The notes under the pieces were generated by a model that was given only the letters and a program-made list of their open reading frames with translations, was not told where the DNA came from and did not search any database. Positions 5,876-9,424 of a stretch of 64,000 nt of DNA are shown in pieces (position 1 is the stretch's first letter; every line of letters starts with the position of its first letter). This DNA comes from Escherichia coli (GTDB lineage: Bacteria; Pseudomonadota; Gammaproteobacteria; Enterobacterales; Enterobacteriaceae). The translations under genes and the position numbers were made by a program. The stretch is from assembly GCF_003334305.1 (NCBI RefSeq), contig NZ_QOWS01000020.1. One strand, written 5' to 3'.

Positions 5876-7414
5876 ATGACCAATAATCCCCCTTCAGCAC
5901 AGATTAAGCCCGGCGAGTATGGTTTCCCCCTCAAGTTAAAAGCCCGCTATGACAACTTTATTGGCGGCGAATGGGTAGCCCCTGCCGACGGCGAGTATTA
6001 CCAGAATCTGACGCCGGTGACCGGGCAGCTGCTGTGCGAAGTGGCGTCTTCGGGCAAACGAGACATCGATCTGGCGCTGGATGCTGCGCACAAAGTGAAA
6101 GATAAATGGGCGCACACCTCGGTGCAGGATCGCGCGGCGATTCTGTTTAAGATTGCCGATCGAATGGAACAAAACCTTGAGCTGTTAGCGACGGCTGAAA
6201 CCTGGGATAACGGCAAACCCATTCGCGAAACCAGTGCTGCCGACGTGCCGCTGGCGATTGACCATTTTCGCTATTTCGCCTCGTGTATTCGGGCGCAGGA
6301 AGGTGGGATCAGTGAAGTTGATAGCGAAACCGTGGCCTATCATTTCCATGAACCGTTAGGCGTGGTGGGGCAGATTATCCCGTGGAACTTCCCGCTGCTG
6401 ATGGCGAGCTGGAAAATGGCTCCCGCGCTGGCGGCGGGCAACTGTGTGGTGCTGAAACCCGCACGTCTTACCCCGCTTTCTGTACTACTGCTAATGGAAA
6501 TCGTCGGTGATTTACTGCCGCCGGGCGTGGTGAACGTGGTCAACGGCGCAGGTGGGGAAATTGGCGAATATCTGGCGACCTCGAAACGCATCGCCAAAGT
6601 GGCGTTTACCGGCTCAACGGAAGTGGGCCAACAAATTATGCAATACGCCACGCAAAACATTATTCCGGTGACGCTGGAGCTGGGCGGCAAATCGCCAAAT
6701 ATCTTCTTTGCTGATGTGATGGATGAAGAAGATGCCTTTTTCGATAAAGCGCTGGAAGGCTTTGCACTGTTTGCCTTTAACCAGGGTGAAGTTTGCACCT
6801 GTCCGAGTCGTGCCTTAGTGCAGGAGTCAATCTACGAACGCTTTATGGAACGCGCCATCCGCCGTGTCGAAAGCATTCGCAGCGGTAACCCACTCGACAG
6901 CGTGACGCAAATGGGCGCGCAGGTTTCTCACGGGCAACTGGAAACCATCCTCAACTACATTGATATCGGTAAAAAAGAGGGCGCAGACGTGCTCACCGGC
7001 GGGCGGCGCAAGCTGCTGGAAGGTGAACTGAAAGACGGCTACTACCTCGAACCGACGATTCTGTTTGGTCAGAACAATATGCGGGTGTTCCAGGAGGAGA
7101 TTTTTGGCCCGGTGCTGGCGGTGACCACCTTCAAAACGATGGAAGAAGCGCTGGAGCTGGCGAACGATACGCAATATGGCCTGGGCGCGGGCGTCTGGAG
7201 CCGCAACGGTAATCTGGCCTATAAGATGGGGCGCGGCATACAGGCTGGGCGCGTGTGGACCAACTGTTATCACGCTTACCCGGCACATGCTGCGTTTGGT
7301 GGCTACAAACAATCAGGTATCGGTCGCGAAACCCACAAGATGATGCTGGAGCATTACCAGCAAACCAAGTGCCTGCTGGTGAGCTACTCGGATAAACCGT
7401 TGGGGCTGTTCTGA
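5876..7414 (+). CDS. aldB: NADP-dependent aldehyde dehydrogenase B
   Basis: ORF track starts at 5738 but conserved protein begins [11 protein letters not shown] at ATG 5876 with SD aaggaga upstream; 512 aa; ALDH catalytic motifs. Confidence 0.9.
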
Positions 7415-7444
7415 TATAAGAAGCTGGTCGCATTGGGTATTCAT

Positions 7445-7526
7445 TGCCTGATGCGACGCTTACGCGTCTTATCATGCCTACGGGAACCTGACCGTAGGCC
7501 GGATAAGGCGTACACGCCGCATCCGG
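7445..7526. repeat. REP/BIME element (two inverted REP units) downstream of aldB
   Basis: gcctgatgcgacgcttacgcgtcttatcatgcctac ... gtaggccggataaggcgtacacgccgcatccggc read directly. Confidence 0.75.
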
Positions 7527-7632
7527 CATAAACAAAGCGCACGTTGTTACAATTTACGTTTTAAACCTACGTGCGCAATAACCCAGACTACGCCAACAGA
7601 AGTGCGTTTCTGGGGCGTGTTTTGTCAGGAGT

Positions 7633-7776
7633 TTAATCTCGCGTTTCGATGGTGAGCGGGCGAACCAGGCCGTAAATCACCATTGGTGATCCGAGGCCAA
7701 TCAGCAATAAACGGTAGATAATTGAAGGTTTAATACGCTTAATCTGTACTGTGGATGTTTTACTGGAGTTATTCAT
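7633..7776 (-). CDS. hypothetical small single-pass membrane protein (47 aa from internal ATG; ORF track gives 70 aa to 7845)
   Basis: ORF MNNSSKTSTVQIKRIKPSIIYRLLLIGLGSPMVIYGLVRPLTIETRD with one ~20-residue hydrophobic helix; no obvious SD; intergenic location. Confidence 0.2.
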   Translation of the reverse strand: MNNSSKTSTVQIKRIKPSIIYRLLLIGLGSPMVIYGLVRPLTIETRD

Positions 7777-7958
7777 TAGTTTGGCCAATAGTTCCACTAT
7801 TTCAATATGATAAACCTCGTCCTGTTGAAAAACCAGACAGCACATTTAAGAAAGTATATAAAAAACAATATGTCGTTATATAAATAAGGAAATTGCACTG
7901 CATCATGGCATTTCATAATATGCGTTAATTGTTCTTTTTTATATTCTTTGAGGGAAAT

Positions 7959-8282
7959 ATGTTCCTGGACTATTTTGCACTGGGAGTGCTTATTTTTGTA
8001 TTTCTGGTGATCTTCTATGGGATCATTATTTTACATGATATTCCCTACCTGATTGCCAAAAAACGTAATCATCCTCATGCCGACGCCATTCATGTTGCTG
8101 GTTGGGTGAGTCTTTTTACGTTACATGTTATCTGGCCGTTTTTGTGGATTTGGGCCACGCTTTACCGCCCGGAGCGGGGATGGGGAATGCAAAGCCATGA
8201 TTCATCCGTTATGCAACTGCAACAGCGCATTGCCGGGCTGGAGAAACAGCTCGCCGACATCAAATCCTCTTCTGCCGAGTAA
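7959..8282 (+). CDS. yiaW: small inner-membrane protein (DUF3302 family)
   Basis: 107 aa from ATG 7959 preceded by agggaaat; two hydrophobic helices; 5 nt upstream of yiaV. Confidence 0.8.
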
Positions 8283-8287
8283 TACTT

Positions 8288-9424
8288 ATGGATTTACTGA
8301 TTATTTTGACCTATGTGGCTTTTGCATGGGCAATGTTTAAGATCTTCAAAATTCCCGTAAATAAATGGACCATTCCCACAGCGGCCCTGGGTGGAATATT
8401 TATTGTCAGCGGTCTAATTCTGTTAATGAACTATAACCATCCGTATACCTTCAAAGCGCAAAAAGCGGTTATTTCTATTCCTGTTGTCCCACAGGTGACA
8501 GGCGTGGTGATCGAAGTGACGGATAAGAAAAATACGCTGATTAAAAAAGGTGAGGTGCTATTTCGACTGGACCCGACGCGTTATCAGGCGCGGGTGGATC
8601 GGCTGATGGCGGATATCGTTACCGCAGAACATAAACAGCGGGCGTTGGGCGCAGAGTTAGATGAGATGGCGGCGAATACTCAGCAGGCAAAGGCCACGCG
8701 GGATAAATTCGCTAAAGAGTATCAGCGTTACGCACGCGGCAGCCAGGCGAAAGTAAACCCGTTTTCAGAACGCGATATTGATGTGGCGCGGCAAAATTAT
8801 CTGGCGCAGGAAGCCTCCGTAAAGTCATCGGCGGCGGAACAAAAACAGATCCAGAGCCAGCTGGATAGCCTGGTGTTGGGTGAACATTCTCAAATCGCCA
8901 GCCTGAAAGCGCAGCTCGCGGAAGCAAAATATAACCTTGAGCAGACGATAGTGCGTGCGCCGAGCGATGGTTATGTGACCCAGGTGCTGATTCGTCCGGG
9001 TACCTATGCCGCGTCGCTGCCGCTACGTCCGGTGATGGTGTTTATACCCGATCAGAAACGACAAATTGTGGCGCAGTTCCGTCAGAACTCCTTGCTGCGA
9101 CTGGCCCCTGGCGACGATGCGGAAGTGGTGTTTAACGCTCTGCCAGGCAAAGTGTTCAGCGGTAAGCTGGCAGCCATTAGTCCAGCTGTTCCCGGCGGAG
9201 CTTATCAGTCGACCGGCACCTTACAGACGTTAAACACAGCGCCGGGTTCAGATGGCGTTATCGCGACCATTGAACTGGATGAGCACACTGATTTGAGCGC
9301 TTTACCAGACGGTATTTACGCCCAGGTGGCGGTCTACTCTGATCATTTCAGCCATGTCTCGGTGATGCGCAAAGTGCTGTTACGCATGACCAGTTGGGTG
9401 CATTACCTTTATCTCGATCATTAA
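8288..9424 (+). CDS. yiaV: membrane-fusion (HlyD/EmrA-family) periplasmic adaptor protein
   Basis: 378 aa; N-terminal TM anchor then long coiled-coil-type region; synteny with yiaW. Confidence 0.85.

Follow-up and report, generated by a model that had tools for sequence, protein, structure and literature searches.

The analysed stretch of DNA, a 64,000-nucleotide window from Escherichia coli, carries the gene order yiaY, aldB, a spacer, yiaW, yiaV and yiaU. Both genes bordering the spacer are on the plus strand: aldB at 5876–7414 (assigned by annotation, called genes and tblastn) and yiaW (DUF3302, from the annotation) at 7959–8282. A sequence-only reading of this DNA had described a minus-strand open reading frame (ORF) in a spacer of ~540 bp, with a hydrophobic helix and no convincing Shine-Dalgarno (SD) sequence, and these observations were confirmed. 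The spacer, from the end of aldB at 7414 to the start of yiaW at 7959, measures 544 bp. The ORF list holds a 70-codon ORF beginning with ATG at 7633–7845 (translation, MCCLVFQQDEVYHIEIVELLAKLMNNSSKTSTVQIKRIKPSIIYRLLLIGLGSPMVIYGLVRPLTIETRD), within which an internal ATG at 7776 opens a version of 47 codons plus stop (7633–7776). The hydrophobic stretch was likewise found (IIYRLLLIGLGSPMVIYGLV; maximum 19-residue Kyte-Doolittle mean, 1.71). Neither ATG, at 7845 or at 7776, has an SD upstream, and the sequence ahead of the ATG at 7776 reads ...tattggccaaacta. When the spacer was shuffled with its dinucleotides preserved, 6–31% of the trials gave an ORF of 70 codons or more (p 0.06–0.31, varying with the region and the set of start codons used), which places the length of the ORF within chance.

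Over 5 kb, 80 differences separate the window from MG1655; in the spacer a single base (7604) is changed, and the 70-codon ORF is identical. A window position x corresponds to MG1655 position 3762387 − x, so that the ORF lies on the MG1655 plus strand, from 3754542 (70-codon version) or 3754611 (47-codon version) to 3754754. The curated MG1655 record, NC_000913.3, has zero features between yiaW and aldB. In most RefSeq E. coli, PGAP calls the 47-codon version a "hypothetical protein" (WP_001066080.1 in the window, allelic variants in other genomes); elsewhere it calls a 67-codon version with a GTG start in some strains and makes no call in some others, O157:H7 for example.

E. coli E400634 carries, in the same place, an ORF of 104 codons (WP_001064341.1), with hicA-hicB between this ORF and aldB. 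DNA alignment and codon comparison showed that the window allele equals the 104-codon allele minus an internal 171 nt (codons 39–95, 57 codons). Codons 1–38 of the window allele correspond to the part of the full gene that encodes the N-terminal tail and transmembrane helix 1, codons 39–47 to the part for the final nine residues, and the segment removed holds the second helix together with the best-conserved motifs of the protein family described below. The scar of the deletion is found at 7660–7668 on the minus strand, where codon 38 (GTT, 7665–7663) meets codon 39 (CGC, 7662–7660). The deletion is flanked by direct repeats of 8–11 nt, (G)CCTGGT(T/C)-(T/C)GC, both in one codon phase: the long allele reads TAC GGT CTG GTT TGC GGC at codons 35–40 and TAC AGC CTG GTC CGC CCG at codons 92–97, and the short allele reads TAC GGC CTG GTT CGC CCG across the junction. 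Because the repeats are in phase, the reading frame stayed open after the deletion. The repeats of E. whittamii and E. sp. E1V33 read GCCTGGTT-T/C-GC. O157 and UTAK-15-type alleles have TGC (Cys39) at the junction, a second variant that could reflect either a C/T transition or a separate deletion between the same repeats. Collectively, we consider it almost certain that the ORF is an in-frame internal-deletion derivative of a conserved gene for a membrane protein of ~104 residues, and that its hydrophobic helix is the first transmembrane helix of that protein.

The 104-residue form belongs to a protein family. A HMMER search among 1.84 billion representatives returned 169 proteins at E ≤ 1e-3, 29 of them at E ≤ 1e-10; nearly all of the matches are 95–125 residues long and aligned end to end, with the Citrobacter protein at 6.8e-34, and a word-indexed search gave matches in Escherichia relatives only. 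The family alignment revealed a conserved segment in the first helix (R-I/L...IYKL...GL), a conserved loop running into the start of helix 2 (FG..TV.WNG...HG..AL..GP, in shorter form W-N-(G/D)...H-G) and a conserved C-terminal motif (GLW.YS.FRPL) covering the end of helix 2 and the C-terminus. G46, G59, G88, L89 and W90 are invariant or nearly so, and all of them lie within the deleted segment; the window allele retains RPL only. Covering family positions 1–38 and 96–104 only, the window allele shows no similarity over the whole core of ~95 residues and lacks the motif set of the family, but it occupies the orthologous position, convergent with aldB and immediately downstream of it.

The long form was modelled with AlphaFold2 (pLDDT 84). 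The model comprises a strand (residues 7–10), a helix (17–44), a short hairpin (51–56), a second helix (59–95) and a final strand (100–103), and the N-terminal tail is basic. From the model, the long form is predicted to form a membrane hairpin of two helices, with the N-terminal and the C-terminal strand on one and the same side. A Foldseek search against AFDB50 found many neighbours labelled DUF3566 (TM 0.8–0.9, E 1e-8 to 1e-4), the labels being automatic and the two-helix hairpin a simple fold; a PDB fold search with the same model returned zero matches. The neighbours so labelled in UniProt and the AlphaFold DB, among them many of the best-scoring ones, have ~100 residues, TM-scores of 0.8–0.9 and 22–34% identity to the long-form model. 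One Franconibacter orthologue bears the DUF3566 name in UniRef, whereas the E. coli protein has no match to Pfam PF12089. Indeed, no Pfam-A family, DUF3566 included, matched the 104-residue E. coli protein at an i-Evalue ≤ 0.1. Among the 102 family members scanned, any Pfam-A family reached this threshold in a few at most, DUF3566 was not listed for them, and the precomputed Pfam fields of family members are empty. Pfam, NCBIfam and PADLOC together gave nothing meaningful for the short or long E. coli forms or for the 102 members.

The gene is syntenic beyond Escherichia. Citrobacter amalonaticus carries a 104-codon orthologue (57% identity) exactly between divergent yiaW and convergent aldB, without hicAB; yiaW is thus the divergent neighbour both in this species and in Escherichia. 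Franconibacter carries a 103-codon orthologue that is likewise convergent with aldB, with different upstream genes. A species-level genome scan additionally gave E. whittamii, E. sp. E1V33, C. sedlakii and Enterobacter sp. kpr-6; the scan was built from a seven-sequence alignment and recovered eight species. By tblastn of AldB, aldB adjoins the gene in 8/8 related loci, in keeping with its place as the convergent neighbour of the full-length gene across Enterobacteriaceae. The long architecture was found in every outgroup recovered and in more than 100 distant family members, and the short form in none of the outgroup genera. On this comparison of sequences, the long form is ancestral. E. whittamii has an intact 104-codon gene beside a hicB stub of ~27 codons (L020, 4307–4387), which indicates that the loss of hicAB and the 171-nt deletion were separate events.

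On its aldB side, the ORF abuts a remnant of hicB, the antitoxin gene of the hicAB toxin-antitoxin pair. Alignment placed the last 23 codons and stop of hicB, with an internal deletion of four codons, at 7565–7636 on the plus strand. The remnant translates as TYVRNNPDYANRSAFLGRVLSGV followed by its stop, compared with ...TYVRNNPDYANRSAFLAEAARRVLPGV and stop at the C-terminus of intact HicB, and a stop codon lies just upstream of it. The TAA of the stub and the stop of the ORF overlap in the palindrome TTAA (7633–7636). hicA is missing from the window, which accordingly holds no intact hicA/hicB pair; intact hicAB is found at this site in 28 E. coli genomes (E400634 included), E. sp. E1V33 and Enterobacter sp. 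kpr-6. In the window, hicA and the larger part of hicB are replaced by REP/BIME-type repeats (7404–7577, no strand assigned), where Rfam gave three sub-threshold matches to naRNA4, which is REP-derived, at 7404–7478, 7445–7528 and 7497–7577. Parts of this stretch are found several times in each genome, and a query with the whole spacer matched a median of three places per genome. Insertions and deletions evidently cluster in the 3′ flank of aldB.

The same region was considered as a possible small RNA or type I toxin locus. This candidate was rejected, as the Rfam scan of 7000–8400 returned sub-threshold REP-like matches only and the 47-residue peptide had no NCBIfam or PADLOC match. Mobile elements were seen here in individual genomes. 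In E. coli KTa005 (NZ_CP147084.1, 4241988–4243310), an IS1 sits inside the aldB-yiaW spacer and splits the match in two. In one Citrobacter amalonaticus genome, an insertion sequence with an rve-family transposase lies between the intact 104-codon gene and aldB (L008, 5388–6751), in the gap that is filled by hicAB in Escherichia and Enterobacter.

The homologues also bear on where the coding frame begins. The sequence-only reading had given the 70-codon frame as the ORF and the 47-codon frame as its internal alternative. The genes of Citrobacter, Franconibacter and Enterobacter begin at the ATG equivalent to 7776 and have an SD there, so that the longer frame did not hold up as a coding frame. 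Its 23-codon in-frame extension (7777–7845, minus strand) is the most variable segment of the spacer, with a divergence of 10–14% between E. coli strains versus 3–6% for the ORF core. The extension is interrupted by a 1-nt gap or a stop in TOE51-type and O157 alleles, and it is absent outside Escherichia. The 70-codon reading was rejected on these grounds, and the extension is probably not coding.

In Citrobacter, C. sedlakii, Franconibacter and Enterobacter, an SD (AGGA, AAGGAG, AGGAG or GGGGA) stands 6–9 nt ahead of the corresponding ATG. Every Escherichia allele, whether long or short, instead carries ...ttggccaaact(a/t) at this place and has no SD. The intact Escherichia alleles are thus without a canonical SD and yet are under purifying selection, as shown below; a missing SD is therefore no proof of missing translation. 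A promoter scan of the minus strand gave no site, and a relaxed scan nothing above 8 of 12 matches. A weak -10-like TATACT (7858–7853, minus strand) would start a transcript near the ATG at 7845, possibly a leaderless one, in the frame that is not conserved. On the plus strand, the published sigma-70 promoter of yiaWV (CAGACA-17-TATAAA; PMC3946193), which we located by sequence at 7834–7862, has its spacer over the upstream ATG at 7845. This promoter, at map position 80.87, is listed as H-NS-associated (PMC3946193). Turning to published small-protein surveys, the main text of the Weaver et al. preprint mentions neither a flanking gene nor the ORF coordinates. The supplements of Fesenko 2024, Schumacher 2023 and smORFer contain neither the coordinates nor the peptide, which is uninformative and not evidence of absence.

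A match to the gene was detected in 3,801 of 5,426 complete E. coli genomes, as the full-length form in 28 and as the deleted form in ~3,770 (about 70%); the other ~1,625 genomes had no match. In about 1,600 complete genomes the 3′ flank of aldB is of a different kind. There, as in the examples AR13438 and JNEC-KY174, aldB is followed by hicAB, in some cases with a gene for a type I restriction endonuclease, and then by genes for a GH127 glycoside hydrolase and an MFS transporter. In flanks of this type the relic ORF is not on the aldB side, and hicA is frameshifted in one of them.

Selection was compared between the two forms by the Nei-Gojobori method. Three distinct long alleles gave dN/dS values of 0.09–0.13, whereas seven distinct short alleles from 13 loci ranged from ~0.2 to ~1.0, and a single pair, with very few changes to count, exceeded 4. 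The segregating changes among short alleles amount to ~8 synonymous and 12 non-synonymous, versus 13:5 for the long alleles in the same 47 codons and 21:8 over their full length. The contrast between short and long alleles yields a Fisher p of 0.03–0.09, the value varying with the treatment of multi-hit codons. Divergence between strains is 3–6% for the 47-codon core, 3–5% for the upstream non-coding DNA and 2–4% for yiaW, with the core equal to or above the other two. The 47-codon frame is open in 13/13 sampled short-allele loci (seven distinct alleles), an absence of stops that would be no improbable outcome of neutral evolution, given ~20 substitutions in 141 nt. Rare disrupted alleles were present in the protein collection, namely a frameshift (P0027), a stop-loss (P0007) and N-terminally rearranged variants. 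This small sample of sequences suggests that the short alleles are under relaxed constraint, and the pairs with dN/dS of 0.2–0.35 may reflect weak residual constraint.

Four explanations of the ORF were weighed. The sequence-only reading had left room for a chance ORF, taken here as one arising in AT-rich intergenic DNA with no coding history. The non-significant length test and the missing SD agree with such an origin, but codons 1–38 and 39–47 line up in order with a 104-codon gene, for which 169 family representatives and, in four genera, syntenic orthologues were found. Homology and synteny thus refute a chance ORF in spite of the length test, and we regard this origin as highly improbable. 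Still less credible is the reverse polarity, in which the short form would be ancestral and the 104-codon form the product of a 171-nt insertion in a few strains. The rarity of the long form within E. coli (28 genomes) is what this proposal could explain. Against it, the long architecture is present in all outgroups and the distant members, the extra 57 residues hold conserved motifs, and the junction bears the signature of a deletion between direct repeats; the outgroup comparison refutes it. The idea of a small single-pass membrane protein put forward by the sequence-only reading was partly supported, in that the helix is a genuine transmembrane helix, namely helix 1 of a conserved protein; the window allele itself, however, is internally deleted, shows relaxed constraint and has no SD. 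Similarly, conservation of the frame in relatives, which that reading had named as a check, was observed in other genera, but solely in the form of the longer gene.

The remaining two explanations accept the deletion and differ in what became of the product. The shortened allele might be a working gene, its 47-residue single-pass peptide retained or co-opted in most E. coli. The frame is open at every short-allele locus sampled, the allele is carried by ~3,770 of the 5,426 genomes, several pairwise dN/dS values lie at 0.2–0.35, the shape matches that of known small inner-membrane proteins, and the intact Escherichia alleles are constrained despite having no SD either. Against this stand the ~8:12 ratio of synonymous to non-synonymous changes, which is near the neutral ~1:3 and unlike that of the long alleles, and a core that diverges as fast as the adjacent non-coding DNA. 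The best-conserved motifs of the family are gone, an SD and a convincing promoter are both missing, ~1,625 E. coli genomes do without the locus, and the ORF appears neither in the curated MG1655 annotation nor in the main text of the Weaver et al. preprint. We therefore judge a working short gene to be unlikely. Rather more doubtful still is the specific proposal that the deletion-born peptide is translated and kept in ~70% of E. coli for a function; such a peptide might, for example, be a dominant fragment that binds the partner of the parental protein, or act in the membrane as a new modulator. The explanation that we favour, and consider well supported on balance, is that the ORF at 7633–7776 on the minus strand is the deletion relic of a real gene, most likely a non-functional one. 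The loss of motifs, second helix and strand pairing, the near-neutral substitutions, the missing SD and the H-NS-associated spacer make it likely, if somewhat less firmly so, that the relic is without function.

Under the favoured explanation, the ancestor of Escherichia, Citrobacter, Franconibacter and Enterobacter would have carried a gene of ~104 codons, convergent with aldB and encoding a small inner-membrane protein. On the branch that led to the majority of E. coli, exactly 171 nt would have been lost through slippage between the repeats GCCTGGTT.GC, or through their illegitimate recombination, and helix 1 thereby fused directly to the final nine residues. Any protein still made would be a single-pass peptide of 47 residues, without the loop motif and without the second helix. 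According to the model, its C-terminal strand would then lie across the membrane from its N-terminal partner strand, making the parental fold impossible. Separately, the hicAB genes between the gene and aldB would have shrunk to the 23-codon hicB stub, with REP elements in their place. The relic would since have been free of the selection acting on the parental gene and, within an H-NS-associated spacer, is probably translated poorly or not at all.

The full-length orthologues (WP_001064341.1, 104 residues; Citrobacter, 104 residues; Franconibacter, 103 residues) share the position, start codon and first transmembrane helix of the window allele. The latter differs from them in having lost residues 39–95, with the FG..V.WN...HG loop, the second helix and GLW.YS, and it has no SD, unlike the orthologues outside Escherichia. 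Validated small inner-membrane proteins of E. coli K-12 (≤50 residues) were found by comparative genomics and start-codon-arrest ribosome profiling. Like them, the ORF is intergenic and encodes 47 residues with a polar, basic N-terminus and one hydrophobic helix; unlike them, it is SD-less, is unannotated in NC_000913.3, derives from a truncated larger gene and appears to be under relaxed constraint. Its 8–11-nt repeats, degraded hicB neighbour, REP elements and rearrangement-prone spacer are instead those of E. coli pseudogenes formed by deletion between direct repeats. It departs from the typical deletion pseudogene in that the deletion is in frame, as a result of which annotation pipelines call an intact "hypothetical protein".

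The case is an ordinary but instructive one, a probable relic that resembles a gene for a small membrane protein. Thousands of RefSeq E. coli genomes annotate the ORF as an intact protein (47, 51 or 67 residues), for which "internally deleted remnant" would be the better description, and in-frame relics of this kind are expected to pass the "conserved ORF plus TM helix" filters of small-protein screens. If the peptide were nevertheless made and kept for a function, it would be a documented small protein born by the truncation of a larger gene. Our analysis also identifies a fairly widespread family of ~100-residue membrane proteins that has neither a Pfam nor an NCBIfam model, and its intact members in Citrobacter, Franconibacter and rare E. 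coli are the right ones for study.

In Enterobacteriaceae, adjacency to aldB is the sole consistent association of the family, and the neighbourhoods of the four distant members examined are unrelated and have no common partner. One of the distant members, P0062 from a metagenome contig (L036, 2706–3041), was found in a dehydrogenase operon of the 2-oxoacid/acetoin type (E1-alpha, E1-beta, E2), where it separates the E1-beta gene from the E2 gene (lipoyl/2-oxoacid_dh) and overlaps the start of the latter by 4 nt. Together, the linkage to aldB and this operon hint at a metabolic association of the family, and a role of the parental proteins connected with aldehyde or acetoin metabolism is conceivable.
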